Source: an uncultured Candidatus Saccharibacteria bacterium (GTDB lineage: Bacteria > Patescibacteriota > Saccharimonadia > CAILAD01 > BJGX01). Taken from it: a stretch of 64,000 nucleotides of DNA. Each line of letters starts with the position of its first letter. Position 1 is the stretch's first letter. Shown here one piece after another: positions 1-53,932 of the stretch. Position numbers and translations under genes: made by a program. Location of the stretch: contig CAZSVP010000001.1 in NCBI GenBank assembly GCA_964610335.1, forward strand, positions 61,324-125,323, given 5' to 3'. Under the pieces are notes generated by a model. It was not told the origin of the DNA and ran no database searches. It saw only the letters and a list, made by a program, of their open reading frames with translations.

Positions 1-554
1 TGTAATCCTTTTAGGGCTAGACGAATACGATCTTGAGTATCTAGCTTGGCATCAACATCCTTGAGCGCCTTACGGGCATCGTCGGTAGTAAATCCAAGTT
101 GTTTTAGTGCCAGTACAGCAGGATCGTCGTTGGCACTGACAGGTGCTTCTGCTTCCACAATCTTACCCTTCAACTCCAGAATAATTCTCTGTGCAGTTTT
201 TTTACCAATGCCCGATACATTGCTAAACAGTGTGATGTCTCCCGTGATAGTGGCAGTTTGGACTTCGTCTACCGTATGTTTGCCAAGAATTGCCATGGCA
301 GCCTTTGGCCCCACACCGTTGACCGAGGTGAGTTGATAGTAACAAACCCGCTGATCGAGTGTGGCAAAGCCATATAGAGTGTACTCGTCTTCCTTGATAT
401 TCTCCGCAATGTAAAACGATGCTGGCTGACCAATAGTAAGCTCGCTAAGCTCACTTGCCGAAGGCACAACTTCGTAGCCCACGCCACTGGTAATCTCCAC
501 TATGGCGCTATGAGGCATGAGTTCTATAACTGTTCCGGTTATTTTCGCAATCAC
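1..554 (-). CDS. ruvA: Holliday junction DNA helicase RuvA. The C-terminal few residues run off the window start. GTG start at 552-554.
   Basis: Reverse-strand translation VIAKITGTVIELMPH...LTSVNGVGPKAAMAIL...GIGKKTAQRIILELKG matches the RuvA OB-fold plus tandem helix-hairpin-helix motifs. An in-frame TGA lies just upstream of the GTG. ruvC is immediately upstream. Confidence 0.85.
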   Translation of the reverse strand, partial: MIAKITGTVIELMPHSAIVEITSGVGYEVVPSASELSELTIGQPASFYIAENIKEDEYTLYGFATLDQRVCYYQLTSVNGVGPKAAMAILGKHTVDEVQTATITGDITLFSNVSGIGKKTAQRIILELKGKIVEAEAPVSANDDPAVLALKQLGFTTDDARKALKDVDAKLDTQDRIRLALKGL

Positions 555-578
555 AGATGCATTATAGCATCAAATGCT

Positions 579-743
579 CTATCGGCGACGTCTGAATAGT
601 TTGGCAACCCAATGAAAAATAGCCCCCAGAATTGAGAATATACAAACTATTACTACTATCACTGCCAGCCACACAAGCAACTGAATGATGTCACAGTTCT
701 GTGTGCATGCAAACTGGTAGTTGAAGAGAGGCACTTGAATCAT
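579..743 (-). CDS. Small hydrophobic protein of 54 aa with one TM helix, lying between ruvC and ruvA. Hypothetical.
   Basis: ORF MIQVPLFNYQFACTQNCDIIQLLVWLAVIVVIVCIFSILGAIFHWVAKLFRRRR starts 8 nt after the ruvC stop. AGGAG sits 12 nt upstream. It has a TM segment plus a basic C-terminus. The longer ORF in the track (to 803) overlaps the ruvC 3' end. Confidence 0.25.
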   Translation of the reverse strand: MIQVPLFNYQFACTQNCDIIQLLVWLAVIVVIVCIFSILGAIFHWVAKLFRRRR

Positions 744-750
744 AAGCTTA

Positions 751-1221
751 TTATACTCCTTTATTACTTCCTGCGATTGCAATTGCCAGTGCATCCGCCG
801 CATCGTCCGGCTGAGGTAGCTGATCGAGCTTAAGTAACCGCATCACCATCTCTTGTACTTGTGGTTTCTTGGCTTGACCGTTGCCCGTGACAGCACTCTT
901 GATTTGTAGCGGTGTAAATTCGAGTGGCGTAAGTCCATGACTGGCTATTACATATAAAATCACACCCCGAGCCTGCGACACAGCCATGGCAGTAGTGACA
1001 TTGGTAGCAAAATAAAGCTTTTCAACTGCCACTATGTCTGGGTTGTGAGATTTGATAAGTTGATCTAAGTCATCGGCCAACATTACCAGCCGCTTACCCA
1101 TCTCTACTCCCACCGGCGTACTCACAATGCCATAATCGACCATACTAAGCTTGCCATTTTCCTTGTTAACCACCCCAAAGCCAGTGGTAGCTGTGCCAGG
1201 GTCAATGCCGAGAATGATCAT
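751..1221 (-). CDS. ruvC: Crossover junction endodeoxyribonuclease RuvC
   Basis: MIILGIDPGTATTGFGVV... shows the RNase H-like fold with the catalytic Asp in IDPG. The conserved C-terminal DAADALAIAI motif is present. Length is 156 aa. Confidence 0.9.
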   Translation of the reverse strand: MIILGIDPGTATTGFGVVNKENGKLSMVDYGIVSTPVGVEMGKRLVMLADDLDQLIKSHNPDIVAVEKLYFATNVTTAMAVSQARGVILYVIASHGLTPLEFTPLQIKSAVTGNGQAKKPQVQEMVMRLLKLDQLPQPDDAADALAIAIAGSNKGV

Positions 1222-1742
1222 TAGAATCTTACTCTTACTTTCTCAGCCATTTCTTTAGTGCAGACATATGGAAGTACATCGGAATTGGCAGTTTTTAGCT
1301 CTATCATGTCCCAGCCAGGCCGTTCGTAAATGCTCGCGTCTTCAATACTTCCACTTCGAACTGATTGCTTTAGCTTATTGTATTTCAACTCAGGCAGAAC
1401 GAAGTCTATGTCACCCACTTGTGGACTATCCCCACTAGGTTTACGAATATAAAGCCATTCGTAGGTAGCTGCCGGTACATCATTACTATCAGCTATTACA
1501 ATTGGGTCGATTAATTGAAAGTATTTTTGATTTGGATCATCCGATGGTTTAGTTTGCTCCTTTCGAAACTGTGTAAGTAGTTCATACTCGTCATCAAAGT
1601 GACAAAACACTCCAACGTCCCCGGCAACTGATAAGTACTCTCCAATTATTTGTTTACAAAGTTTGTGGCACTCTGTATGTAGATAGTTAATAGCCTGTTC
1701 TAGTTCTGACTTTGACTTGATTGGGCTAAAACGATAATCCAT
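1221..1742 (-). CDS. Hypothetical protein of 173 aa
   Basis: ORF with start/stop overlap to both neighbours (yebC and ruvC), which implies translational coupling. No recognisable motif. Confidence 0.5.
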   Translation of the reverse strand: MDYRFSPIKSKSELEQAINYLHTECHKLCKQIIGEYLSVAGDVGVFCHFDDEYELLTQFRKEQTKPSDDPNQKYFQLIDPIVIADSNDVPAATYEWLYIRKPSGDSPQVGDIDFVLPELKYNKLKQSVRSGSIEDASIYERPGWDMIELKTANSDVLPYVCTKEMAEKVRVRF

Positions 1743-2479
1743 TATTCCAGCGTACTCATAATTTCGTCGGGGATATCAAAGTTGCTAGTTACTTCTACTA
1801 CATCATCAAGGTCATCGAGTGCTTCCATGAGGTTGAGAATAGTCTTAGCTTTGCCGGCATCATCAACAACCACCGTTTGGTTGGCTTCGAGCTTCACCTC
1901 GGCACTTTCGACATTATCTTCGCCTAGCGCATCGCGGACTTTCTCCAAATCGTTTGGCGATGTGTACACCACGAGTTGGTCGCCACTGTCATCGATGTCT
2001 GTAGCGCCAGCCTCAATCGCAATTAGACTAAGTTCGTCTTTGTCGATGCCCTCTTTGCACACAACAATGCCTTTTTGCTCAAAAAGATAACTCACACTCC
2101 CGGGTGCTCCTAAGTTACCACCATGTTTACTAAACGCAGCCTTAACAGCTGGCGCTGTGCGGTTACGGTTGTCGGTGAGAGCTTTGACAAGCACAGCCAC
2201 TCCGGCTGGTCCATATCCCTCATATGCCAACTCCTCGAGCCTAGCACCGTCCCCGTTGCCAGCACCACGAGCAATGGCACGCTCTATGTTGTTGGCTGGT
2301 ACATTGGCTGCTTTGGCTTTTTGGATAGCAAGGCGTAGTTTGAAGTTCATAGTAGGATCAGCACCACCTTGTGCTGCTACAGCAATTTCTGCAGCCATCT
2401 TGGTAAATACCTTGCCACGCTTAGCGTCAGTAATACCTTTTTTATGTTTTATACTGTGCCACTTTGAATGCCCACTCAT
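1742..2479 (-). CDS. yebC: YebC/PmpR family DNA-binding transcriptional regulator
   Basis: N-terminus MSGHSKWHSIKHKKGITDAKRGKVFTKM is the hallmark of the YebC/TACO1 family. Length is 245 aa. Confidence 0.9.
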   Translation of the reverse strand: MSGHSKWHSIKHKKGITDAKRGKVFTKMAAEIAVAAQGGADPTMNFKLRLAIQKAKAANVPANNIERAIARGAGNGDGARLEELAYEGYGPAGVAVLVKALTDNRNRTAPAVKAAFSKHGGNLGAPGSVSYLFEQKGIVVCKEGIDKDELSLIAIEAGATDIDDSGDQLVVYTSPNDLEKVRDALGEDNVESAEVKLEANQTVVVDDAGKAKTILNLMEALDDLDDVVEVTSNFDIPDEIMSTLE

Positions 2480-2512
2480 GTCGAACTCCTGTCGAGCCTC
2501 TACTTTTGCGAA

Positions 2513-4057
2513 TTACTTAGTTGATTGGCTGCGCTGCGACTTCAGCGTACGAAGTTTGTACGTCTCAGCCGACAGCTTGCCATCGCCTTGAACTTCATCA
2601 AAACTAGCAGGCTCTTTACTGTTAGCTATTGGTGAAATTATAGCATTTTTCAGATCATTTTGGAACAGCTTGAGCCGAGGGTTGCGAGTTGTAAGACCTA
2701 TCCATATAAGTAGTACTGAGTAGTAAGTAGTAATTTGCCAAAGGCTCGGCTGGATGATATTGATTTGAGATATTCGCCAACTGCTGATATAGCGCAACAA
2801 GTCAAACAGCACATTTGTACCATATGCCAACCACGTCCCCATAACAATCGAAGCACCAGGCACCAGCAAGTGTAATACTACCAAGGCCATGCCTACCATC
2901 ATAAGTGGTGGGATGATTGGCATGACTATTAGATTGGCCAATGGCGCTATCAGACTTATTTGCCCAAACTTGTAAGCTACTAATCCTAATGTAGCTATTT
3001 GAGCTGCCAGTGTAACTGCCAGTAACTCCATAAGGAGTTTTGGCCTAGATGGTAGTAGCAATTGCAATCTTGGGGTTAGTACAACTATTCCCACAAGTGA
3101 TAAAAATGACAATTGCCAACTCAAATCACTTAGTAAGTACGATGGGCTAATAGTAACCATAATGGCTGCACAAATACCAAGTGCGGGCAAAACTGCTCGA
3201 TCCTTGCCGTAATATCTAAGTACCAAGAATATTGAGGTCATGATCCCGGCACGCATGATTGAGGCGCCGGCACCTGTGAGTAGCACAAACCCCCATACCA
3301 GCCACAATGAGATCGCCAATCCACCCCAGCGCCAACGGCCGTTGAGCAGTCGATCGAGCATACCAGCTAGGATTGAAAGATTGTAGCCCGACACCGCAAT
3401 CACATGAGACAGACCTAACACTGTTAGCATATCCTGCAAATCCTTCGGTAACGATGATCGCTCGCCAATCAATATCCCGACCATGAAGTCACTGCTGGGC
3501 TTGGGCAAAGTAGCACCGACCTCGTTGATCAACCAATCCTTGGCTCGGATCTCAATCGGCTGGTTGGCGCTAATAACATCTACTTTGGCATAGCGTACAC
3601 CTGCCTCTGTACGCCCGAGGGTTGGCCAGAGCTTACCACTCACCTGGACACGATTACCTTGTTTAGCTATTCCAGTAAGCGATTTAACTCTGATGTTATG
3701 ATCAAACTGTTTGCCATTGATCGAAACACTGCCAATCTCAAATACATATTCTCCTTGTTGATCCCAGCTTGGCCGAGTTGCTACAGTACCAACTGCCACA
3801 ATCTTTTGGCCAAGAAAGTTTGTATATGAATATTGCTGTGCTTGTGAAAAGTAGAGATCCCCTCTCCAAATGCCAAGGCTTAAGCCAATCACCGCAAGTA
3901 GCACATAGGCATATTTAGAGTGGACAGTCGCCAAAGCTAACACACAATAAGCTGTTAACAGCAAGATCAAATTTGGCTGTATCAAAAAATGAGCGCTATA
4001 AACAATACCAACCAGAAAGCCTAATGCGAGTATAATTATTTGGACAGTTCGACGCAT
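2513..4057 (-). CDS. comEC: ComEC/Rec2 family DNA internalisation competence channel. Membrane domain only, no metallo-beta-lactamase domain.
   Basis: 514-aa polytopic membrane protein. An N-terminal OB-like soluble insert (DUF4131-like) is followed by the competence-domain helices (...LGLSHVIAVSGYNLSILAG...). Confidence 0.7.
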   Translation of the reverse strand: MRRTVQIIILALGFLVGIVYSAHFLIQPNLILLLTAYCVLALATVHSKYAYVLLAVIGLSLGIWRGDLYFSQAQQYSYTNFLGQKIVAVGTVATRPSWDQQGEYVFEIGSVSINGKQFDHNIRVKSLTGIAKQGNRVQVSGKLWPTLGRTEAGVRYAKVDVISANQPIEIRAKDWLINEVGATLPKPSSDFMVGILIGERSSLPKDLQDMLTVLGLSHVIAVSGYNLSILAGMLDRLLNGRWRWGGLAISLWLVWGFVLLTGAGASIMRAGIMTSIFLVLRYYGKDRAVLPALGICAAIMVTISPSYLLSDLSWQLSFLSLVGIVVLTPRLQLLLPSRPKLLMELLAVTLAAQIATLGLVAYKFGQISLIAPLANLIVMPIIPPLMMVGMALVVLHLLVPGASIVMGTWLAYGTNVLFDLLRYISSWRISQINIIQPSLWQITTYYSVLLIWIGLTTRNPRLKLFQNDLKNAIISPIANSKEPASFDEVQGDGKLSAETYKLRTLKSQRSQSTK

Positions 4058-6400: not shown

Positions 6401-8665
6401 TTATTTTACCAGTAATTTAGCAGTATCTACTAGGAATCGCCCAGCCAAAGCTCGACGACCTAACAAAGCCGGGAATATCATATTTGATCGATTACTCAAT
6501 GTAAAGGGCGTTACGAAGGTCTTGCCATTTACAGCAACCTCCAAATATACGACGTACCTGGTTTCTAACACCCCACTGGTGTTACGCACTCGGACCGTTT
6601 CATAGTCGTAGGATGTTGCTGGCTTTTCGGTTGATGCTGAAGGATGTTTTTCAACCAATGGCCAATACTTGATATAGTTCTTACCTTGCTGATCAACCTC
6701 TTCGACAACATCCTGACAATGTAGTGCACTGTAGTCTGCCCCAGAGTCAACTCGTGCTTCCACACCACTAAGGCCTAGCTGCTGAAAATCAAGCATTGCT
6801 TTGCGACCAATAATGTCAGTTTGGTCAAGTTGCTTGGATGATTTGCGAGTTTTGGGACGTGCTGCAAATGAAGTACTTGCCATCAAAAACAACACATTGC
6901 GGTGTTCGGACTTAAAAATATTGTCTTTAGAGTAGGCATAATGCTCACTTGTCATAGGATCGATTAGATAATTTCCAATGCGCGAGAAGTAACTGCTAGA
7001 ATCCTGCAATATTGGGTCGAACAATCTAGAGTTGTATCCACAAAGTGATGCTGCAACCAAGAACTCGTATTTATTATCAAGGCTAACACTCGCCCAAGAT
7101 TTATATATTGTCCTTTCGGCGACTTTTAGTAGCGCGCTACAGCGTAGGTCATTAACTCCCACATTATAAAACTCAGACAACCCAATAATAATATGTGTTA
7201 CAAAGTATAGCTGCAGTTGATCAGCAGTAGCTTGATCGATGCCTAGCCTACTTTTATTGGCTGCATAGCTATCGGCAATCTCTGTTAGTGCTGGCAATGG
7301 ATCCGGCAGCTGTTTTGATAGCTTCATGTTATGTTTGCTATAGAACCTGGCAAGATACAAGAAGTTTATGGCGTGGGTTGAAAGTATCATGAGTGCGTCT
7401 TTGTCTTCAAGCAAAACATTGTATAACTCGACCATGTACTTTTCATCTACGAACTTCTTGGCTTGTTCTCGCAGATCTTGTTGGTATATAGTCTCACAAA
7501 ACAGAACTTTAAATAGTATTCCGGTATAAGCTGTCAGTTGTGGATATTTAGCAAAGTACGGCGCTCTAGCCTCGGCATTCTTTGTCTTCTTACCACGAGT
7601 CTTTGAGTTTGTTTCAAAGATCTTCTGTAATTTACCAGCTGATTCCTTTGCTGAGAGACCTATGTATTCTTCTCTTAGTTCTAGCAAACGATGATGATAC
7701 TGTATATCCCTACCCCAGAGATACATACGCGAGTAATAATGGAACGCTTTGTTTTGGTTTGTTTTAAACGCCTGATCAAATGTGTCTTTGACAGCAAGGT
7801 AGGTTTCTTTGTGCCGAGTTTGAGAATTTTTTAGGTAGCTACAGATATTGGCAGCAACATCAATGCCAGTAACGTTTTGGAATTCTTGCCAATCAGCGGT
7901 AGTGCCAATTTCCAAAATGTAATACTGCTTAGTACGCTCATCTTGAATAATATCAATACTTGCAAACTCCAGCCCAAAGACTGCAGTTGCTCGTAGCGAC
8001 GTAGCTTTGAGCTGTTCTAATATGGCAGTATTTGACTCTTCTGCAGCCATACCACCTTGGCTAATATTGTTCACGATACTACCTGGTTTTGCACTACGAT
8101 GCATTACTCCAAGTACAGATCCGTTCAACACTAAAACACGCCAGTCACCTTTGTTTGGTATGTAGGTTTGGAATATATAATCCTTGTACTTCTTATCAAA
8201 CTTAGGCAAGTCAGTATTACTTTTAAGCAATACAATATTCTTGCCTTTTGTACCATAATTTGGCTTAGCAATAATAGGGAAGTATACTACACCCTGCTTG
8301 ATAGCATCTTCTAAGTCACTTAAGTTCCTTGGCCGAACTGTCGGGATAGCATACTCAGGCATATTCTCAGCTATCACGCTTTGCTGATAATATTTGTAGC
8401 TTGTATATGGGTTGTTAAGCGATATTCTATTGAGTAAGTGGTTGTCTTGTTCAATCAGCCTAGCAGCTGCGGCTTTTTCGGAACGGATATCCAACGATGA
8501 ACTACGCCATACCACTGCGGAATTATTGAACTTAAGCTGGCTATTTAGGTCCTTTCGAGGATTCAAGTTTACTATCTTAGTACTAAACCCATGTTTTTTG
8601 GCTGACGCTTGTAACTTTTGTACATGATAGTCTTTTGAATCTCGGGAGATTATTACTAGTTTCAT
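6401..8665 (-). CDS. Three-domain fusion: N-terminal RimK-like ATP-grasp ligase (about 290 aa), an unknown alpha-helical middle domain (about 310 aa), and a C-terminal DUF785/retropepsin-like domain (the putative ATP-dependent zinc protease, RimB-like).
   Basis: N-terminus: [49 protein letters not shown]-terminus: [20 protein letters not shown]...[46 protein letters not shown], typical of Zn_protease/DUF785. Confidence 0.7.
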
Positions 8666-46129: not shown

Positions 46130-47317
46130 TCAGTTGCGCACTCGACGCTTGACACGGTTGCATGCTCTGTTGAACAATGCACCATCGTCAGCTACCAGCG
46201 CCGATTGCATGTCGGCTACGTCTTGCTGCAGACCCACCACCAGATCGAGATAGAAATCGTCTTGCACTCTTGGCAGCCCTGCCACTGCCTCGGCCAACAA
46301 CCAGACTGTGTCTGGACCACGAAGAGCCGGATTGTTCTGAAGCAGTGAACGAGCGTCGTCGATCTGCCACACTACACGCTCGATCTGGCAGATGTCGGCC
46401 ATCTCGACCATGTTGGGTTCGCCATGATTCTTGTAGTAGTACTGTCGTACCCAAAAACCAGGCTTGATCAACAGATCTTCAAGGATTGGATCACCAATCT
46501 TCTTGGCCAGCCGAGGTCGGCCAGATCGGTACAAACACTCCAGCTGCCACAGATCATCGAGTAGCTTCTCGGCCAGCACATTGCCGACCAACCTGTGACC
46601 ACTCATGGACCCAATCGTGTTGATGTCCCACTCAGCTTGGCCTGCGAGAAATGGCTTGGCACGAGTCAGCTTGGCTGCAGTTGCTCCGGGATTGTAGCGA
46701 CCGAGCGAATCAGTCACATCGAGCGCGCTTAGCAAGCTCGCGAAAGCCTCCACTCGCCGACGTGTCTCGGCACGCTCCAGGCCGGCTGCCTCGGCGCTCA
46801 ACACCACACAGACATAGCGCAGGCGCATCGGATCGTCGCGCAATTCCCTGCCATGATGCGCTAGCTCGGGCACAATCTCCTCGAGCTTGGACACACTGTC
46901 GAGCAACTTGATGCGGCGCATCAGAGCGTTCTCCAAACCAAGATTGCCCGTTCGCACCAGCGACGGCACAGTCCAGAATGGAAACGTGGTGCGGCGCGCA
47001 TCCTCGGTGCGAGATACAGCGATGATCTCCCCCTCACGACGAGGGTCGCTTGGGTTTTCCAGCACCAAGTGATACTTGGGTGAAGCTCCTGACACCATGA
47101 TCTGTCGCACCTGTGCAGTCCGTCGTACTTTCTTGCGCTTCACCCACTTGAAATATGGGTAGTCGATCAGGGGGCCAAGTTCGTAGGTAGGCTTCATGAG
47201 GCCCTCCATTTCATAGTCGATCTGTCGAAGAACTTTTGGCGGCAGTATTGTACCACCTAAGCACCTTGACTTCAACAGATATAAATGGGTATAATCGGCG
47301 GGTACTGCAGCACACAT
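46130..47317 (-). CDS. Hypothetical protein of 395 aa encoded in a high-GC (about 60%) island
   Basis: Long ORF with GC far above the window background. No recognisable motif. Divergent from tRNA-Asn. Confidence 0.55.
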   Translation of the reverse strand: MCAAVPADYTHLYLLKSRCLGGTILPPKVLRQIDYEMEGLMKPTYELGPLIDYPYFKWVKRKKVRRTAQVRQIMVSGASPKYHLVLENPSDPRREGEIIAVSRTEDARRTTFPFWTVPSLVRTGNLGLENALMRRIKLLDSVSKLEEIVPELAHHGRELRDDPMRLRYVCVVLSAEAAGLERAETRRRVEAFASLLSALDVTDSLGRYNPGATAAKLTRAKPFLAGQAEWDINTIGSMSGHRLVGNVLAEKLLDDLWQLECLYRSGRPRLAKKIGDPILEDLLIKPGFWVRQYYYKNHGEPNMVEMADICQIERVVWQIDDARSLLQNNPALRGPDTVWLLAEAVAGLPRVQDDFYLDLVVGLQQDVADMQSALVADDGALFNRACNRVKRRVRN

Positions 47318-47363
47318 ATTCCGGATCTCACTCTAGTGGACTCGGAGTAAATGCAAAACACCT

Positions 47364-47438
47364 TCCGGAGTAGCTCAGCGGTAGAGCAATTCGCTGTTAA
47401 CGAAAAGGTCGCCGGTTCGAATCCGGCCTCCGGAGCCA
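47364..47438 (+). tRNA. tRNA-Asn (anticodon GTT)
   Basis: tccggagtagctcagcggtagagcaattcgctGTTaacgaaaaggtcgccggttcgaatccggcctccggagcca. Cloverleaf with encoded CCA. Confidence 0.9.
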
Positions 47439-47452
47439 TAGTACTTATGCTT

Positions 47453-47476
47453 AAAAGACCCATTGGGGTCTTTTTT
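47453..47476 (+). terminator. Rho-independent terminator (agaccc-attg-gggtct plus T6)
   Basis: Hairpin followed by tttttt immediately after tRNA-Asn. Confidence 0.55.
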
Positions 47477-47490
47477 GATACAATCTAAAT

Positions 47491-47751
47491 ATGAGATTTG
47501 AAAAGAAGATATTTCCCGAATATTTTGAATTAGTAAGAACAGGCAAGAAAACATACGATTTTCGCTTGGCTGATTTTGCAATCAACCCTGGCGATACTTT
47601 AGTTCTTAAAGAATGGGACAAGCAGAAAAAAGAGTTTACTGGTCGTGAATTGGAAAAAGAGGTTACATATGTGGGGAAAACTAAGGGTGACACTACCTGG
47701 TCACAAGAGGAAATTGATAAATTTGGCTATCAAATAATCTCGTTTAAGTAG
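47491..47751 (+). CDS. DUF3850/ASCH-like domain protein of 86 aa
   Basis: KIFPEYFELVRTGKKTYDFRLADFAINPGDTLVLKEWD matches DUF3850 (ASCH-fold). Confidence 0.55.
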   Translation: MRFEKKIFPEYFELVRTGKKTYDFRLADFAINPGDTLVLKEWDKQKKEFTGRELEKEVTYVGKTKGDTTWSQEEIDKFGYQIISFK

Positions 47752-47766
47752 TGACTAAGATATTTC

Positions 47767-47792
47767 TAACTTCCATCACTACCCGGAGCCAG
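47767..47792 (+). repeat. Copy A of a 26-nt direct repeat, TAACTTCCATCACTACCCGGAGCCAG
   Basis: 24/26 identical to copy B at 49345-49370. Its 3' part CCGGAGCCA equals the 3' acceptor end of tRNA-Asn (47430-47438). Confidence 0.6.
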
Positions 47793-47841
47793 CAATAATT
47801 TCAGATAGAACACCAACTACCCCAAAGTGGACGTTCGAACT

Positions 47842-47865
47842 AAAGAGGCCCGAAAGGGTCTCTTT
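47842..47865. terminator. Terminator hairpin (agaggccc-gaaa-gggtctct)
   Basis: Same GACCC/GGGTC stem family as the terminators at 47453 and 49384. Lies between convergent genes. Confidence 0.45.
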
Positions 47866-47874
47866 AGTTATTTA

Positions 47875-48717
47875 CTAGATGGATTCAATTATCACTTTTG
47901 AATAGCCAGAGCTTTGAAGCTTTTTCCTTAACCCAGCCGAGGTTTCCTGTATTTGATCAAATGATGAGCCCTTTGGAACTATTGCGCAGCAAAGAATATA
48001 TTCACTGCTTGAAACCGCCCAAACATACAGATTCTTGACTTCTTTAACTCCAGGATCAGAGTAAATTGTATTTCGGACTTTCTCTAGGTCTACATCTGAT
48101 GGCACTCCTTCGAGGAAAATATTAGTAGCTTGTCGCAATATCCCAACGGCCGCGTACAGTAGCCCAAAGCCAACACCTATACTTATTACTGGGTCTATCC
48201 AGCTCTCGCCAGTAAACAATATAAGAATACCTGCAAACATACTCGCAATTGAAAAAATCATATCAAAAGCCATGTTTGTGTACGCGGCCTTTACGTTGAT
48301 GTCTGACTTATACTTCCTAAATAATAATGCCACTGTACCATTGGCAAAAATACCAATTAATGCCACCACTGCAATTATGCCACCCCTCACCTCTACCGGG
48401 TGAATTAATCGTTGGTAGGCTTCATAGAAGATAAATAATGATATAGCAACAAGGATAGTACTGTTTACAAATGCAGTTAGTACTTCAACACGGCCATGCC
48501 CAAGTGTGTGACTGGCATCGGCAGGCTTCTTACCAATTCGATTCCCCAACCACGAGATTACTAATGTTATCGAATCAGTTAAGTTATGTGTGGCATCGGC
48601 CAATAATACTAAGCTACCTGTAAGTAACCCAATCGTAAACTCAAATAGCATAAATGCAGTGTTAATAAAGAAGCCAAGTTTGAATCGATTGTTGATTGAC
48701 AGATCTTTTGCATGCAT
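47875..48717 (-). CDS. Cation diffusion facilitator (CDF) family metal efflux transporter
   Basis: Six TMs with HxxxD-type motifs (ADATHNLTDS, HTLGHGRVEVL) and a C-terminal cytoplasmic domain. Confidence 0.85.
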   Translation of the reverse strand: MHAKDLSINNRFKLGFFINTAFMLFEFTIGLLTGSLVLLADATHNLTDSITLVISWLGNRIGKKPADASHTLGHGRVEVLTAFVNSTILVAISLFIFYEAYQRLIHPVEVRGGIIAVVALIGIFANGTVALLFRKYKSDINVKAAYTNMAFDMIFSIASMFAGILILFTGESWIDPVISIGVGFGLLYAAVGILRQATNIFLEGVPSDVDLEKVRNTIYSDPGVKEVKNLYVWAVSSSEYILCCAIVPKGSSFDQIQETSAGLRKKLQSSGYSKVIIESI

Positions 48718-48873
48718 ACATATAGGATATCAGAGATTTAACATACGAACACTTACGCGACTGTTATTGTCTAAAGAGGACATCTCAAAGGTATGCCAGC
48801 AAAAGCAGGTACGTCTCGACTAAAATAATTCTCTCACAAGACCAGTTGAGCAATTCTTGATACTATTAAGACT

Positions 48874-49347
48874 ATGACTAAACTACTAATACTAGGTACA
48901 CAACTTGCAGGTAAAACTACCTTAGTTAAATATTTGAAGCAAAATACAGACTTGCCAGTAACCGAAATTGATAAAGAGATATTAATTCGGAATAACAATA
49001 CTTGGCCAAAAGACCGACATTATATAGAAAGCGTATTGTTTCCAGAGATAATCAGTCAGTTACTACAAAAAGAAGATATTATTGTTTTCGCGAGTTACTT
49101 GTCAAAAGACTATATTCACTTGTTGCGACAAAATGATTTTAAGTTATTCATACTCGAGATTAGTCGCGACGAAATTGCAAAAAGGAATCTAAAACGTGTC
49201 CAGGAAATAGAAAAAGATAATACATCCCAGTGGATAGTCGGCGAAATTGAATTACAGCAAGACATAGAGCGAGAAGGTATAGTCGATGGCTATCTAGATG
49301 CAGAGCAACCTACAATAACTATTGCTGAGAAAATATTAAAGTTATAA
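48874..49347 (+). CDS. P-loop NTPase, small kinase-like, 157 aa
   Basis: Walker A LILGTQLAGKTTL. Confidence 0.5.
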   Translation: MTKLLILGTQLAGKTTLVKYLKQNTDLPVTEIDKEILIRNNNTWPKDRHYIESVLFPEIISQLLQKEDIIVFASYLSKDYIHLLRQNDFKLFILEISRDEIAKRNLKRVQEIEKDNTSQWIVGEIELQQDIEREGIVDGYLDAEQPTITIAEKILKL

Positions 49348-49370
49348 CTTCCATTACCACCCGGAGCCAG
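49345..49370 (+). repeat. Copy B of the 26-nt direct repeat, TAACTTCCATTACCACCCGGAGCCAG. It overlaps the TAA stop of the P-loop gene.
   Basis: See copy A. It is followed 13 nt later by a terminator of the agaccc/gggtct family. Confidence 0.6.
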
Positions 49371-49383
49371 GGTAGTTATAATT

Positions 49384-49406
49384 AAAAGACCCAAAGGGGT
49401 CTTTTT
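49384..49406 (+). terminator. Rho-independent terminator (agaccc-aaag-gggtct plus T5)
   Basis: Hairpin plus T-run. Its T-run runs into the TGgTATAAT -10 box of the next gene. Confidence 0.55.
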
Positions 49407-49420
49407 GGTATAATACGCCT

Positions 49421-49630
49421 ATGCAAAGAACAGCTACAAAAGTATTTATCATTGCCTCGATTGCATTTGGTATTATTGGCATTTTAGTGGTTCTGACAGG
49501 ATCTGGTCCGGATAAACCGGATTCTATCTTGAGCGGAATACTTATAAAATTATTACTTGCAACCGTCTTTGTAATTCTGCCATCATTTGCCCTAAGTGTT
49601 GCGGGTAAATACCTGAACGGTAAAAAGTAG
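49421..49630 (+). CDS. Small membrane protein of 69 aa, probably expressed from a leaderless or near-leaderless mRNA
   Basis: Two TM helices. The TGGTATAAT extended -10 at 49406-49414 ends 6 nt before the ATG. Confidence 0.4.
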   Translation: MQRTATKVFIIASIAFGIIGILVVLTGSGPDKPDSILSGILIKLLLATVFVILPSFALSVAGKYLNGKK

Positions 49631-49685
49631 TTATTGTTTGCGTTAATTAGAAGAAAAAATACCTTACTAGTTTAATAAGGTAAGA

Positions 49686-50003
49686 TTATCGTGGTTTGGA
49701 CTGCCCACTTAGTATCCCTTGTATTGATGGGCTGATTGCTTTGTCGGTACGGTGGATGCAGCCTATCCAGCAGCAAGGTCGGCGTTTCCCCTCTTTCAGC
49801 TCAGCAACTGTACGCTTGATGTGGTCTTTTCTTGTAGCGTCTTGTTTAACGGAAATATTCCAGCAAATCCACTCGTTGCGTGCGAGCGGGGTAAGCCCTT
49901 GCCACTTCCCTAAAGCTGCTTTGTCAGACACCAAGGCTTTGCGTAGATCGGCAGGCATCTCATGCACAGTGCCGCCAAGTATTTCTTCGTTAGTCATAAA
50001 CAT
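49686..50003 (-). CDS. YdeI/OmpD-associated family protein
   Basis: LTPLARNEWICWNISVKQDATRKDHIKRTV matches the YdeI family. The start is placed at an internal Met to avoid overlapping the divergent gene. Confidence 0.5.
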   Translation of the reverse strand: MFMTNEEILGGTVHEMPADLRKALVSDKAALGKWQGLTPLARNEWICWNISVKQDATRKDHIKRTVAELKEGKRRPCCWIGCIHRTDKAISPSIQGILSGQSKPR

Positions 50004-50066
50004 ATCATATCCTAATTGGTACCAATTGGGAATTTGGTATGATGTAGTAAAGAAAGGATACAAATA

Positions 50067-50525
50067 ATGCAAAAAATCATCCCTAATCTATGGTTTAACC
50101 ACAATGCCCAAGAGGCAGTAGACTACTATCTATCAGTTTTTCCAGATGGCAAGGCACTATCTACAGAGTACTATCCAAAAAGTGAGGCAGAGGGCTTGGC
50201 TGACTTTCAAAAAGACCTGGCAGGACAGCCACTAGCAATTGAGTTTGAGCTCCACGGTATGCATTTTATTGCTATAAACGCTGGTCCAGAGTTTAAGTTC
50301 ACTGAAGCTGTTTCGTTTGCTGTCTACTGCAAGGATCAAGAAGAGATTGATTACTATTGGGGTAAGCTCTCGGCAGATCCTAAGTTTGAACAATGCGGTT
50401 GGTGCAAAGACAAGTTTGGTCTTAGCTGGCAGATAGTTCCCGACAATATAGAAGAGCTAATGAAAAAGCCTGGAGCTTACGCCAATATGATGCAAATGCA
50501 TAAGCTCGAAATAGATAAGTTCTAG
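50067..50525 (+). CDS. VOC-family (PhnB-like, glyoxalase-fold) protein
   Basis: IIPNLWFNHNAQEAVDYYLSVFPDG...FELHGMHFIAINAGPEFKFTEAVSF...KDKFGLSWQIV matches PhnB-like 3-demethylubiquinone-methyltransferase-like family members. Confidence 0.7.
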   Translation: MQKIIPNLWFNHNAQEAVDYYLSVFPDGKALSTEYYPKSEAEGLADFQKDLAGQPLAIEFELHGMHFIAINAGPEFKFTEAVSFAVYCKDQEEIDYYWGKLSADPKFEQCGWCKDKFGLSWQIVPDNIEELMKKPGAYANMMQMHKLEIDKF

Positions 50526-50544
50526 AGCTATTACTTATAGTAAT

Positions 50545-50934
50545 TTACTTCAGTCGAACCAATTCACCGCGACGCTTGACGATGTTCTGATAATCCCACT
50601 GGATTTGTCTAGACTTTTCAAGCCAGCGCTGAAGATCCGCTACGTTTACTTCATCGACACTTGTATAGCGTGCCTCGGCGGCCTTAAAACTACCCTCTGG
50701 TTTCAAGACATCTTCATCAAACGATTGACCACTCCAAAACAGCAACCTAACACAATCTTTGAGTACGTCATATCCAACTATTGGGTTGCCAGCCAAAAAC
50801 CAGACCGGCGCACCATGCCAGATCTTACTCTCCGCTCCATCTAAACCTTTGCTAATTTCACGAGCCAGCAATTCACATATTTCCTGCTCGTTTACTGTCT
50901 TACTGTCATTGTATGTTTGGATGTCTTTGTTCAT
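50545..50934 (-). CDS. DUF1801 domain protein (second copy)
   Basis: KIWHGAPVWFLAGNPIVGYDVLKDCVRLLFWSGQSF...VDEVNVADLQRWLEKSRQIQWDY matches the DUF1801 pattern. Confidence 0.55.
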   Translation of the reverse strand: MNKDIQTYNDSKTVNEQEICELLAREISKGLDGAESKIWHGAPVWFLAGNPIVGYDVLKDCVRLLFWSGQSFDEDVLKPEGSFKAAEARYTSVDEVNVADLQRWLEKSRQIQWDYQNIVKRRGELVRLK

Positions 50935-50966
50935 ATTGTTGGATATTATACTAAATATCACCAAGT

Positions 50967-51593
50967 TCATGTTGTTATAACAATCACTTCTCCATCGCTA
51001 ACAGCTTTGTACTTGATATTATGTTCGACGCAGTACTCTATACCTTTATCAATAGCATCAGACTCTGGATGGTTCGACTTATAGTGTGGCATAAAAGCAA
51101 AATCAACCAAGCCCAAACCCTCCCATATAACTTCATCCAACTCTGCATAAGGAGTTTTGGTAGCGTCACCTACAACTTGATAAGGCTTGAGTGATGGCGC
51201 AAGCACACAACCGGCCGCGCTATATCCCGAGTACAAAAAGTTGGCACGTGACTCATGCAAGTCCACAAGGATGTCATCTAGCCCACTAAGCTTCATTGCT
51301 TGTCGCAACACGAATACGTTTCCTCCCATCACAAAAACCGCGCCATATTCTAGTATCCTTGACTTAAGTAGTTCTTGGTTGCCAAAGTACTGTTTCAAAT
51401 CCAAGTTTTCCGCGTTCAAACCTATTTCTTTCAATCTCATCTTTTTATTTTCTATACTTTTTACAGTCATTTCATCATTGTCGACCCTAAAATCTAAAGC
51501 ATTTGGAATTATCCAAATATTATCAGTCGGGGCCATTTGTTTGATTTGAGCTTTCTTGTCACCAAACTTGAACGAGGATAAGTAAAACTTCAT
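50967..51593 (-). CDS. Peptidase S51 family protein (dipeptidase E/cyanophycinase-like, class I glutamine amidotransferase fold)
   Basis: VFVMGGNVFVLRQAMKLSGLDDIL and HESRANFLYSGYSAAGCV match the S51 catalytic-region pattern. Confidence 0.6.
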   Translation of the reverse strand: MKFYLSSFKFGDKKAQIKQMAPTDNIWIIPNALDFRVDNDEMTVKSIENKKMRLKEIGLNAENLDLKQYFGNQELLKSRILEYGAVFVMGGNVFVLRQAMKLSGLDDILVDLHESRANFLYSGYSAAGCVLAPSLKPYQVVGDATKTPYAELDEVIWEGLGLVDFAFMPHYKSNHPESDAIDKGIEYCVEHNIKYKAVSDGEVIVITT

Positions 51594-51661
51594 ATAGTTA
51601 TTCTAAACTGTAATCTTATTAACGGCATACATAGTTAGTAACATTTTGGTATGATACAGAT

Positions 51662-52012
51662 ATGTTAGACATAAGTTCGTACTATTCTAACTTGAATAGC
51701 CCCCAACAAGCCGAACTTGAACGAATCCGTAAGATTGCTACAAGCTTGGTTCCAGATACTGAAGAAGTAGTTAGCTACGGCATACCCACACTCAAGTACC
51801 TAGGCAAACCACTCATATACTATGCTGCGTTCAAGGACCATGTCAGTATCTTCCCGGCTTCTGACCCCATGGTAGAGGCTATCGGTGATAAACTCGGTAA
51901 GTATCGTACATCCAAGGGAACTTTTCAGTTTCCCTACGATCAGCCTATCTCAGAGGATTTATTGAAAGCAATTGTTAACTATCGCAAAAACGAGATCGAT
52001 TCTAAAAAATAG
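51662..52012 (+). CDS. DUF1801 domain protein (third copy)
   Basis: VSYGIPTLKYLGKPLIYYAAFKDHVSIFPAS matches the DUF1801/YdhG core. Confidence 0.6.
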   Translation: MLDISSYYSNLNSPQQAELERIRKIATSLVPDTEEVVSYGIPTLKYLGKPLIYYAAFKDHVSIFPASDPMVEAIGDKLGKYRTSKGTFQFPYDQPISEDLLKAIVNYRKNEIDSKK

Positions 52013-52058
52013 CTAACAAAACTATCATTTTCCGCCCAACAGTAGTAATGTGTAAGCA

Positions 52059-52490
52059 ATGACTCTTCACAAACTAGTACTCTCCAAATCAATAGGTTGC
52101 CTCAATACTTGCGACAACAATTGCAATCCTTCTGGTGCCTCGGTGTTCTACGCCACACACCATGACAAGCTTTATATACTAACCCACGAGGACAGTCTAA
52201 AGGTAAAACATATTAAGTCAAACCCCAATGTGTGCATGGTGATTGTAGATGACACTTACTACAAGCAGATGCAGTTATACGCTACAGCTAAGATAGCCAA
52301 CGACACAGGGAAGTACTTGCCACTAATCAAACAAGTAATGGCCGAGCACTCCGAGAAGTCTGACTCCGCTATCCCCTACACTGAGATTACCACTGAAGGA
52401 ACAGCACCCGTAATAATAGAGCTCACGCCCAAGCACGGCAAATATTTCGAGTCTGGTCAAGGTATAGTAGAAGAATCTTACACCAACTAA
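52059..52490 (+). CDS. Pyridoxamine 5'-phosphate oxidase-like (FMN-binding split barrel) family protein
   Basis: The architecture and the VFYATHHDKLYILTHEDSLKVKHIKSNPNVCMVIVDD segment fit the PNPOx-like/general stress protein 26 family. Confidence 0.45.
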   Translation: MTLHKLVLSKSIGCLNTCDNNCNPSGASVFYATHHDKLYILTHEDSLKVKHIKSNPNVCMVIVDDTYYKQMQLYATAKIANDTGKYLPLIKQVMAEHSEKSDSAIPYTEITTEGTAPVIIELTPKHGKYFESGQGIVEESYTN

Positions 52491-52494
52491 AACT

Positions 52495-52653
52495 ATGGCA
52501 ATTCAACCGATTTGTGATAAATGCCACCAAAAGCTCCAGGAGTTTGGAGCCTTGTTATTCAGCCCACCTGACGACAGTAGCAACGTCAAGAAGTTCCATC
52601 TCTGCAAAAATTGCTATCAAGAATTACATTCTGAAATTGATTCCGATAAATAG
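52495..52653 (+). CDS. Small zinc-ribbon protein of 52 aa (CxxC...CxxC)
   Basis: MAIQPICDKCHQKLQEFGALLFSPPDDSSNVKKFHLCKNCYQELHSEIDSDK. Two Cys pairs spaced 26 aa apart. Below the ORF-track cutoff. Confidence 0.3.
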   Translation: MAIQPICDKCHQKLQEFGALLFSPPDDSSNVKKFHLCKNCYQELHSEIDSDK

Positions 52654-52701
52654 TTTTTGACACTGGTCCCAAACTGAAACTGATTCTGATATAATCCAGA
52701 T

Positions 52702-53169
52702 ATGAAGAAACCAGTTATTATTACTTTTGCGGTTATAGTGATTGCTCTAATAGTCGCTGTCATTTGGTTTTTTGCGCCTAAGACGAGCCAGTACTCTCCA
52801 CAGAGCAGTACATCTGAATCTACCACAACATCACAGGCAACCTCTACTTCATCAAGCACACAGCCAGGTAAATATGTTGATTACACAGAAGACATTATTG
52901 CCTCTACAAAAGGCACCAAGATTCTGTTCTTTCATGCTCCGTGGTGCCCACAGTGTAAGGCCCTCGACTCAAGCATCAGGTCTGGCAATATTCCAGATGG
53001 TGTTACTATCATCAAAGTCGACTATGACAGCAGCCAAAAGCTTAAGCAAAAGTACGGCGTAACTGTTCAAACCACATTGGTTAGTGTAGATGACGCCGGC
53101 AATCTTATAAAGAAATATGTTGCTTATTCAACCCCTAGTCTGGAAGCTCTAATCAAGAATATTCTCTAG
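52702..53169 (+). CDS. Membrane-anchored thioredoxin-like protein (thiol-disulfide oxidoreductase)
   Basis: N-terminal TM. Active-site motif FHAPWCPQCKAL. 155 aa. Confidence 0.75.
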   Translation: MKKPVIITFAVIVIALIVAVIWFFAPKTSQYSPQSSTSESTTTSQATSTSSSTQPGKYVDYTEDIIASTKGTKILFFHAPWCPQCKALDSSIRSGNIPDGVTIIKVDYDSSQKLKQKYGVTVQTTLVSVDDAGNLIKKYVAYSTPSLEALIKNIL

Positions 53170-53172
53170 TCA

Positions 53173-53892
53173 ATGCCACTAATACTAATAGCATTTCTGG
53201 CAGGCATACTCACAGCTCTTGCGCCATGCGTATTACCCATAATTCCTGCAGTAGTGGGTGGATCTGTGGGCGGCAAGCAGGATCGCAAAAAACCATATAT
53301 CGTAGTGATCTCCCTGTTTATTTCGATTGTACTATTCACGCTTCTACTGAAGGGTAGTACTTTGCTAATCCGGATACCCGATAGTTTTTGGGTGTATCTA
53401 TCTGGATTAATAATAGTCTTCTTTGGTCTCACGCTTGTATTCCCTCAACTTTGGGACAAACTAACTGCTCGATTCAATATATACGGGCGTTCGCAAAAGG
53501 CGCTAGGAAGCGCTTACCAGCACAAGGGTTTCTGGGGAGCTGTCCTAATAGGTGCAGCCCTTGGGCCTGTGTTCTCTAGTTGTAGCCCTGTTTACTTATT
53601 TATACTCTCTACTGTACTTCCGGGAAATTTCATATCTGGGCTAATACACATCATGGCCTATGCACTTGGTCTATGTTTGGTGCTACTACTAGTAGGTATA
53701 TTTGGCCAGAAGTTAATTAACAAGTTCAAGTGGGCGAGCAACCCATACGGATGGTTTAAGCGCAGTCTAGGTATATTACTAGTTATCGCGGGACTACTAA
53801 TAATTACAAGGCTTGATCGGCAAATTCAACAATTTGTGATAGATAGAGGCATACTCGACATCACCCAAGTCGAACAAAAACTTCTCAAATAA
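53173..53892 (+). CDS. ccdA: Cytochrome c biogenesis CcdA/DsbD-type transmembrane electron transporter
   Basis: Six TMs, with the conserved Cys in TM1 LAPCVLPIIPAVVG and in TM4 FSSCSPV. Confidence 0.8.
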   Translation: MPLILIAFLAGILTALAPCVLPIIPAVVGGSVGGKQDRKKPYIVVISLFISIVLFTLLLKGSTLLIRIPDSFWVYLSGLIIVFFGLTLVFPQLWDKLTARFNIYGRSQKALGSAYQHKGFWGAVLIGAALGPVFSSCSPVYLFILSTVLPGNFISGLIHIMAYALGLCLVLLLVGIFGQKLINKFKWASNPYGWFKRSLGILLVIAGLLIITRLDRQIQQFVIDRGILDITQVEQKLLK

Positions 53893-53932
53893 GTTACAAT
53901 ATTGGTCAAAAGTTGCTATAGTACTACCAATT

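Follow-up and report, generated by a model that had tools for sequence, protein, structure and literature searches.

A 64,000-nt stretch of DNA from an uncultured Candidatus Saccharibacteria bacterium (assembly GCA_964610335.1, the 420-kb contig CAZSVP010000001.1, positions 61,324 to 125,323; hereafter the window) carries two copies of a 28-nt repeat behind its tRNA-Asn gene. We consider it probable that this repeat marks the 3′ boundaries of mobile gene cassettes, which are stacked right behind tRNA-Asn in a clade of Saccharibacteria and recombine at an 8-bp core through the action of a recombinase encoded elsewhere. Our confidence that recombination takes place at the core is moderately high; our confidence in any statement on the enzyme is low. 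In this model, a cassette would consist of a right module, one or two accessory genes and a 19-nt arm, TTCTAACTTCCATCACCAC, that lies over the stop codon and is followed by the core, (C)CGGAGCCA. The right module would provide a terminator for the upstream DNA and a −10 promoter 6–9 nt before the ATG of the cassette's own gene, whilst the core has the same sequence as the last bases of tRNA-Asn (the end of the acceptor stem, the discriminator base and CCA). Cassettes would enter, leave and change order by conservative recombination within the 8-bp core and, because that core is identical to the tRNA, the tRNA would stay intact and the core would be duplicated at every boundary. The enzyme behind the exchange would be a site-specific recombinase whose gene lies elsewhere in the genome, and a circular cassette would presumably be the intermediate.

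The repeat unit and its core

The tRNA-Asn(GTT) gene occupies 47364–47438 on the forward strand (ARAGORN; Rfam RF00005, 70.9 bits), and its last 8–9 nt (47430/1–47438, CCGGAGCCA) are the candidate chromosomal recombination core, equivalent to attB or attI. The 28-nt unit, TTMTAACTTCCATYACYAC followed by CCGGAGCCA, ends in the same 9 nt. Both copies lie on the forward strand: copy B at 47764–47791, with the left arm TTCTAACTTCCATCACTAC (47764–47782) and the core CCGGAGCCA (47783–47791; nhmmer E = 8e-11), and copy C at 49342–49369, with the left arm TTATAACTTCCATTACCAC (49342–49360) and the same core (49361–49369; E = 3.7e-10). A profile built from 17 distinct copies matched these two sites alone in the window. 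The conserved unit is 28–30 nt long (TAG/TTMTAAC...) and overlaps the stop codon of the upstream open reading frame (ORF).

The repeat had been noticed in an earlier reading of the sequence by a model (the first-pass annotation) as a 26-mer at 47767 and 49345 that ends in the last 9 nt of tRNA-Asn and shares a type of GACCC/GGGTC terminator with it. All three observations hold. The 26-mer pattern matched solely at 47767–47792 and 49345–49370, and not once in 100 dinucleotide-preserving shuffles. The 64 kb contain three copies of the 9-nt sequence CCGGAGCCA, one at the tRNA end and one at each of the two cores, against a mean of 0.19 in the shuffles, none of which (0/100) reached three copies. 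AGACCC-N4-GGGTCT, with at most one mismatch, is found only at 47456–47471, 47846–47861 and 49387–49402 (0.03 expected), and the hairpins begin 17, 54 and 17 nt past the core for the tRNA end, copy B and copy C, respectively. Core, spacer and terminator together form a 46-nt repeat, with 85% identity between the tRNA tail (47430–47475) and copy C (49361–49406), and the right side of copy B is a separate conserved module of ~80 nt that we named R2. The terminators are part of the junction module.

Switch point at the core

We compared pairwise 26 junctions with an exact core, from the window and from related loci in other assemblies (numbered L001, L002 and so on). Where one left arm is joined to different right modules (71 pairs), identity stopped 0–2 nt past the core, although this count is inflated as the search pattern contained both arm and core; in the 13 pairs with the same right module and different left arms, which the pattern does not affect, identity started 0–1 nt before the core. 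The switch point lies at the core.

The contigs L031 and L032 are a pair of empty and occupied sites, which differ by exactly one cassette flanked by CGGAGCCA. L031 1–61 equals L032 1630–1690 at 98% identity (the tRNA flank), and L031 51–214 equals L032 2297–2459 at 94% (the flank formed by right module R3 and a non-coding element). The 607-nt insert in L032 comprises an R1 module, a GNAT gene, an arm and ACGGAGCCA, with CGGAGCCA at both ends. Since the two partners differ both at the base before the core (C versus A) and at the base after it (A versus G), both exchange points fall inside the 8 bp of CGGAGCCA. L001 and L013 share 95% identity over the 528 nt that end with the last base of the core, and are unrelated past it.

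The locus also varies between close strains. Contigs from at least five samples, reached via a protein 97% identical to the 395-aa neighbour of tRNA-Asn (see below), have flanks ~94% identical to the window. A comparison of the tRNA-Asn locus across strains had been suggested by the first-pass annotation, and it shows the segments to be variable: tRNA and R1 (47364–47480) are kept at 97% identity, and 47481–49713, with its DUF3850, CDF and kinase genes and a 69-aa ORF, is replaced by another gene, a single 257-aa ORF that ends in TTCTAACTTCAGTTACTAC followed directly by ACGGAGCCA. L003 and L008 have cassettes for an ABM protein, an SDR protein and a 172-aa protein in common, but not their order. 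For the SDR cassette, homology sets in at the left edge of the core, and both genomes retain its particular arm variant with a hairpin. Identity is 95% for the 172-aa cassette, against 80% for the tRNA region, which suggests recent transfer.

Distribution and confinement to one locus

An exact 22-mer search with one genome per species returned five Saccharibacteria records and one chance match, and a scan of metagenomes yielded nine further true loci and a second chance match. The discarded matches, L002 (Gemmatimonadales) and L015, lie within high-GC coding sequence; a forward-strand core at 2474 in L011 was likewise dropped as a chance match. L003 represents the same region as L010, and L008 the same region as L009. 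Across the ~14 Saccharibacteria assemblies the unit is found at one locus per contig or assembly, and in at least eight this locus is an array of mostly one-gene segments directly 3′ of tRNA-Asn. The tRNA heads the arrays in the window, L003, L008, L014, L016, L022, L031 and L032, where the segments mostly hold one gene, mostly on the tRNA strand; in L008 the junction element stands in at least 10 consecutive intergenic regions.

A Saccharibacteria contig of 797 kb (JAXLZU010000001.1) contains a single exact copy of the 22-mer, and true matches are confined to a single locus per contig. A dispersed intergenic repeat (of the repetitive extragenic palindrome type or associated with terminators) was considered and rejected, as there are two copies in 64 kb and both are here. 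Because of the single locus in the 797-kb contig and the two profile matches in the window, the unit is not a dispersed 3′-untranslated region (UTR) or terminator repeat. The first-pass annotation had raised such a genome-wide module as an alternative, to be recognised by its presence at many unrelated 3′ UTRs; a motif restricted to one locus per contig does not fit this description.

The cargo of the arrays consists of small accessory enzymes (NUDIX, GNAT, SDR, HAD, kinases, methyltransferase, CAAX protease and PLD, by Pfam). Homologues of the window's kinase (66–72% identity) are carried in the arrays of L027, L031 and L032, where the partner gene is NUDIX instead of CDF. In L032 the kinase ORF reads into the motif with the TAA as its stop codon, whilst the motif after the kinase is degenerate in L027 and lost in L031.

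In L004, three consecutive ORFs of 434, 342 and 482 aa (5–3813) precede the array and end in a diverged arm and core, TAGTTCCGTGACCTGTATGGGGAGCCA; none has a significant Pfam match, with sub-threshold zinc-ribbon and HypA matches in the 482-aa ORF only, and the segment may be an unusually large cassette. In L027 (5100–5290), tRNA-Glu(CTC) and a truncated tRNA-Asn, reduced to GGTTCGAATCCAGTCC directly followed by CCGTAGCCA, precede the array in this order, and every core of the array reads GCGGAGCCA. As the tRNA-Asn at the head is truncated, the L027 array has outlasted the loss of this functional tRNA-Asn copy.

Anatomy of the junctions

Each junction reads left arm, core, right module (terminator, −10 box, ATG), and arms and right modules occur in changing combinations from junction to junction. 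Most often the left arm is (TAG)TTCTAACTTCCATCACCAC; the others are the true tRNA or look-alikes of its 3′ end, and the look-alikes GATATCCGGCCT, GCTATCCAGTCC and CTATCTAAGTCT, which stand before the core, match the resident tRNA. The 19-nt arm is no decayed tRNA remnant: its sequence is conserved between species with different tRNA-Asn acceptor stems (CCGGCCT, CCAGTCT or CCAGTCC).

Right modules fall into three recurrent types. R1 opens with ~13 nt, continues with TTAAAAGACCC-loop-GGGTCTTTTTTGATATAAT and leads into the ATG; it also follows cores in L004, L007, L013, L016, L022, L027 and L032. R2 has a body of ~55 nt, followed by the same terminator and promoter, and its left partners are the true tRNA (L014), the 28-mer (the window and L011) and two other arms (L003 and L008). 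R3 is AGAAAAAACACCAG…CTGGTGTTTTTTCT, often with a non-coding element of ~170 nt behind it. As read from the sequence, the junctions carry a terminator and a TATAAT-like box 6–9 nt before the ATG. We rejected a transposon-style 9-bp target duplication, since the arm does not end in an inverted repeat of the sequence with which the right modules begin.

The ~170-nt element is a non-coding 'cassette' found in L016 (8494–8675 and 10050–10232), L004 (3962–4131), L001 (625–800), L008 (9245–9415), L031 (59–213), L032 (2305–2458 and 3035–3190) and L003 (4543–4706). Its parts are the R3 terminator, an invariant GAACC…GGTTCG hairpin (at times with an extra stem that shows compensatory changes), a further hairpin, in which changes are likewise compensatory, and a pseudo-tRNA 3′ end whose sequence varies in step with the resident tRNA-Asn (CCGGCCT, CCAGTCT or CCAGTCC). 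Rfam gave no match to the element, and the window lacks it. Its role may be that of a non-coding RNA or of an accessory recombination site.

In some cassettes the 28-mer holds a palindromic insert of 14–16 nt (TTCCAT-TCGCTGGCCAGCGGA-CCACC; L008 4385–4429 and 3852–3895, L003 440–505). The palindrome TCGCTGGCCAGCGGA recurs in look-alikes of the tRNA 5′ half beside a GIY-YIG ORF (see below), and the insert could represent a very small mobile hairpin or a site bound by a protein.

Proposed cassettes of the window

The window appears to hold two complete cassettes (DUF3850; CDF plus kinase) and a third, distal unit, and Pfam supports all three gene assignments of the first-pass annotation. The GC content of the variable segment is 0.375, compared with 0.448 for the window.

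Cassette 1 starts with an R1 module (47439–47490, forward strand) made up of a 13-nt spacer, the hairpin AAAAGACCCATTGGGGTCTTTTTT (47453–47476) and a putative −10 box, TACAAT (47479–47484), 6 nt past which lies the ATG. Its cargo is an 86-aa DUF3850/ASCH protein (47491–47751, forward strand; PF12961, E = 2e-16), whose gene is missing from the 94%-identical strains L018–L025. Cassette 2 starts with the R2 module (47792–47871, forward strand), in which the conserved ~55-nt body, GCAATAATTTCAGATAGAACACCAACTACCCCAAAGTGGACGTTCGAAC, is followed by a bidirectional terminator hairpin (47838–47869; inverted repeat and fold). This module is 82–93% identical to copies in L003 (three copies), L008, L011 and L014, and in L014 it lies immediately 3′ of the true tRNA-Asn. 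Cassette 2 encodes a 280-aa CDF cation-efflux protein on the reverse strand, opposite to the array (47875–48717; PF01545 Cation_efflux, E = 1e-42), and a 157-aa P-loop kinase-like protein on the forward strand (48874–49347; Pfam AAA_18), whose stop codon is the TAA within the motif (TTATAAC).

The distal unit (49370–49713, forward strand) consists of an R1 module, with its terminator at 49384–49406 and −10 box TATAAT at 49409–49414, a 69-aa membrane ORF (49421–49630) and a hairpin at ~49660–49683. No recognisable closing arm or core was found in it. Its end is set by the return of homology with related strains at 49714, in the 3′ end of the convergent OmdA gene (BLAST breakpoints against L020 and L022).

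A T-run and a GATAYAAT −10 box stand 6–9 nt before the start, with no Shine–Dalgarno sequence, at 47477–47493, 49407–49423 and 51644–51664; the pattern serves cassette genes and some neighbouring genes alike, and would imply leaderless mRNAs. Beyond the distal unit, 49714–53900 is a block of small accessory-type genes (OmdA/YdeI, the PhnB-like 3-dmu-9_3-mt, two DUF1801, peptidase S51 and others). The first genes of this block, namely OmdA/YdeI, the PhnB-like gene and DUF1801, are also present at the far side of the arrays in L001, L004, L007, L011, L022, L027 and L031, and the block may be an older, now fixed part of the array.

Search for a recombinase and points against the model

Several results weigh against a cassette system with a recombinase acting at the core. 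No integrase, resolvase or transposase was found among more than 60 array ORFs from ~14 assemblies (Pfam scans or precomputed Pfam calls), and Pfam gave no recombinase domain among those ORFs of the window that could not be assigned by eye; a regular expression for the tyrosine-recombinase box II motif did not match in the window either. No phage or plasmid carrying the junction was found: the viral contigs scanned gave no match to the arm or to the R1 or R2 junction, and phage and plasmid records searched by BLAST with the entire array matched at tRNA-Asn itself only, so that we discarded a phage or plasmid attP as the source of the site. A search restricted to assemblies revealed no circular cassette. 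In addition, some breakpoints lie between the right module and the gene and not at the core (the 184-aa cassette of L016 and L008; L007 and L016), and the distal boundary of the window, at 49714, is not at a core; ordinary homologous recombination must therefore also act at the locus. Finally, the site is asymmetric, with conservation on the left side alone and right modules of three or more types. Tyrosine and serine recombinases normally bind inverted half-sites on either side of the crossover, and one-sided conservation is unusual for both.

The conserved neighbour of tRNA-Asn in most arrays is a divergently transcribed gene for a 395-aa protein (46130–47317 in the window, reverse strand). 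Its family is small (31 representatives among 1.8 billion proteins), fast-evolving and found in Saccharibacteria, and the gene has a GC content of 0.557, compared with 0.448 for the window. The protein has no Pfam, PDB-sequence or fold relative. An AlphaFold 2 model (mean predicted local distance difference test score 90.4) shows an N-terminal β-hairpin domain and then long helical bundles, which match generic helical bundles only. These helical proteins of ~380 aa could be put forward as the recombinase, but no feature marks them as one and we give the idea only a slim chance.

Alternative explanations

Of the other explanations, the one that survives best is that the junction is a conserved intergenic expression module (terminator, promoter and stop context), shuffled by RecA-dependent recombination after natural transformation, with the repeats acting as portable homology only. 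Saccharibacteria are naturally transformable, the right modules have every appearance of terminator/−10 units, the breakpoints outside the core would be expected, and junction elements of 90–130 nt at 80–95% identity could support homologous exchange. However, unrelated left arms (true tRNA, 28-mer and pseudo-tRNA) occur on the same right module, and vice versa, and the 8–9 nt shared at the switch are too short for RecA-dependent recombination. Nor would one expect an expression module to reproduce the terminal bases of tRNA-Asn or to stay at one locus. We regard this explanation as unlikely.

Somewhat less likely still are classical tRNA-targeting islands, as favoured by the first-pass annotation: serial integration of integrase-bearing phages or islands at the 3′ end of tRNA-Asn, each event displacing a copy of the tRNA end, with later deletion of the integrases and most of the cargo so that att scars are left. 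It is well known that elements accrete in tandem at tRNA genes, the tRNA 3′ end is directly repeated here, and the arms GATATCCGGCCT, GCTATCCAGTCC and CTATCTAAGTCT, matching the resident tRNA as they do, resemble decayed or copied tRNA 3′ ends. The part of this proposal that ties the junctions to the tRNA-Asn 3′ end, and sees the segments as accessory and variable, is upheld; what we find there is a cassette array, however, and not a set of decayed islands. Serial integration followed by integrase loss fares poorly against ~14 independent arrays without an integrase or a recognisable remnant of one, units of one or two genes and 0.35–1.6 kb, and the lack of the junction in the viral contigs scanned. 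Furthermore, a 19-nt arm that stays conserved despite differing acceptor stems is not expected of decaying scars.

An RNA-level role seems very doubtful. Here the element would be a tag that mimics a tRNA 3′ end (…CCGGAGCCA) on cassette mRNAs, for 3′ processing or stability, and the variability of the array would be incidental. The element does end each ORF on the transcribed strand and closes, like a tRNA, in a discriminator base and CCA, but there is no 5′ partner for an acceptor-like helix and no Rfam match, and the tag would leave both the empty/occupied pair and the re-assortment of flanks at the core unexplained.

Least probable of all is a genuine integron or an integrase-free attC cluster (CALIN), with the 28-mer plus R2 as a divergent attC: mostly co-directional small ORFs, with conserved ~100-nt repeats between them that reach over the stop codons, recall one, as does an inverted pair formed by the arm start GTTCTAAC and the R2 end GTTCGAAC (13/15 bp by hand pairing), but this pair exists at 28-mer/R2 junctions only and not with R1 or R3, no IntI was found, the switch is at a tRNA-like core and not at GTTRRRY, and the cassettes seem to have promoters of their own.

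Comparison with known systems

Chromosomal integrons (IntI, attI and attC; e.g. the Vibrio superintegron with its VCR repeats) are nevertheless functionally the closest system to the proposed cassette array. They too are arrays of small, mostly co-directional accessory genes, with an end site over the stop codon, cassettes that are gained, lost and re-ordered, and one fixed entry beside a divergent conserved gene. A variable array of ORF-plus-site cassettes, as defines integrons, is present here (arrays, strain replacement, re-ordering and the insertion of a single cassette). The entry, in contrast to an integron, is the 3′ end of a tRNA gene, and the site is a 19-nt arm plus an 8-bp core identical to the tRNA, compared with a folded attC with R″, L″, L′ and R′ boxes. 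When we looked for an attC-like hairpin, an imperfect palindrome with RYYYAAC and GTTRRRY boxes, by DNA folding of both strands at junctions B, C and that of L011, the terminator hairpin was the only stable shared structure. Integrons rely on the promoter Pc to express promoterless cassettes, whereas each cassette here has its own terminator and a predicted leaderless-type promoter, with a −10 box legible at every junction. An IntI-type recombinase beside the array was not found: there was no Phage_integrase match in the scanned window or array ORFs, and the divergent 395-aa neighbour matches neither Pfam nor PDB entries.

Integrative elements that target tRNA genes, and their tandem accretions, also recombine at the tRNA 3′ end with regeneration of the tRNA, and likewise produce direct repeats, tandem segments and presence/absence variation. 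The locus shares with them the insertion at the tRNA 3′ end, the direct repeat at the far boundary and the intact tRNA. It differs in that no integrase accompanies the att-like site among the array ORFs scanned or Pfam-annotated in the ~14 arrays, in its single-gene units, in the short tRNA identity (8–9 bp) and in an element-side arm that is conserved across species.

Xer-dependent modules (IMEX at dif, and the pdif modules of Acinetobacter plasmids) are also small, lack a recombinase gene, use a short 28-bp site and depend on an enzyme encoded elsewhere. Unlike theirs, the target here is a tRNA end and not dif, and the 28-mer does not have a dif-like architecture. By inspection, TTCTAACTTCC and the reverse complement of ACCCGGAGCCA match at 2/11 positions; the inverted 11-bp XerC and XerD arms around a 6-bp spacer that mark a dif site are not there, and a dif-like site was rejected.

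A more far-reaching version of the cassette model, which we advance tentatively and would not call probable, is a dedicated capture system analogous to integrons. The tRNA-Asn 3′ end would take the part of attI, the cassettes would be self-expressing one-gene units with a 28-nt end site, and the recombinase would be of an unrecognised type or would read a single conserved half-site. The structured ~170-nt non-coding element may have a part in targeting. No description of this array was found in the searchable literature, which is itself incomplete.

Other features around tRNA-Asn

The other flank of tRNA-Asn also carries insertions in some relatives. An 82–87-aa GIY-YIG ORF lies between the 395-aa gene and tRNA-Asn in L022 (3410–3790), L018–L025, L008 (9500–9914), L017 and L033 (216–464), and is absent from the matching position of the window (47318–47363). 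It is flanked by two copies of a sequence that resembles the 5′ half of tRNA-Asn but has a palindromic hairpin in place of the D-loop (…GTAGCTC-TTCGCTGTACAGCGAAG-GTAGAGC…), and looks like the insertion of a free-standing homing endonuclease. With this insertion on the other flank, tRNA-Asn is a hot spot on both sides.

In L016 (7885–8493) the anticodon loop of tRNA-Asn is split by a group I intron (8213–8445; Rfam RF00028, 100.6 bits), which is why ARAGORN misses this tRNA, and a 104-aa HNH-like ORF ends within the 5′ end of the tRNA gene. The start of the window's R2 module (47793–47809; CAATAAT-T-TCAGATAG) and part of this intron (L016 8369–8387) are alike at 16/18 positions; 1 in 500 shuffles did as well, and the marginal similarity is possibly due to chance.

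Implications

Bacteria of the candidate phyla radiation have tiny genomes (<1 Mb for Saccharibacteria) and few recognised mobile elements through which to gain accessory genes. The array may serve as a gene-capture platform for such a reduced genome. If the cassette model is correct, a single hot spot at tRNA-Asn would explain much of the strain-level variation in gene content within this clade, and the integron principle would have been invented independently, with a tRNA end as the landing site. The model points to a recombinase that tolerates an asymmetric site, and it predicts where assemblies of Saccharibacteria metagenome-assembled genomes break. The motif could be used to harvest cassettes from metagenomes, and the locus suggests itself as a natural and neutral place to insert DNA in genetic studies of Saccharibacteria.

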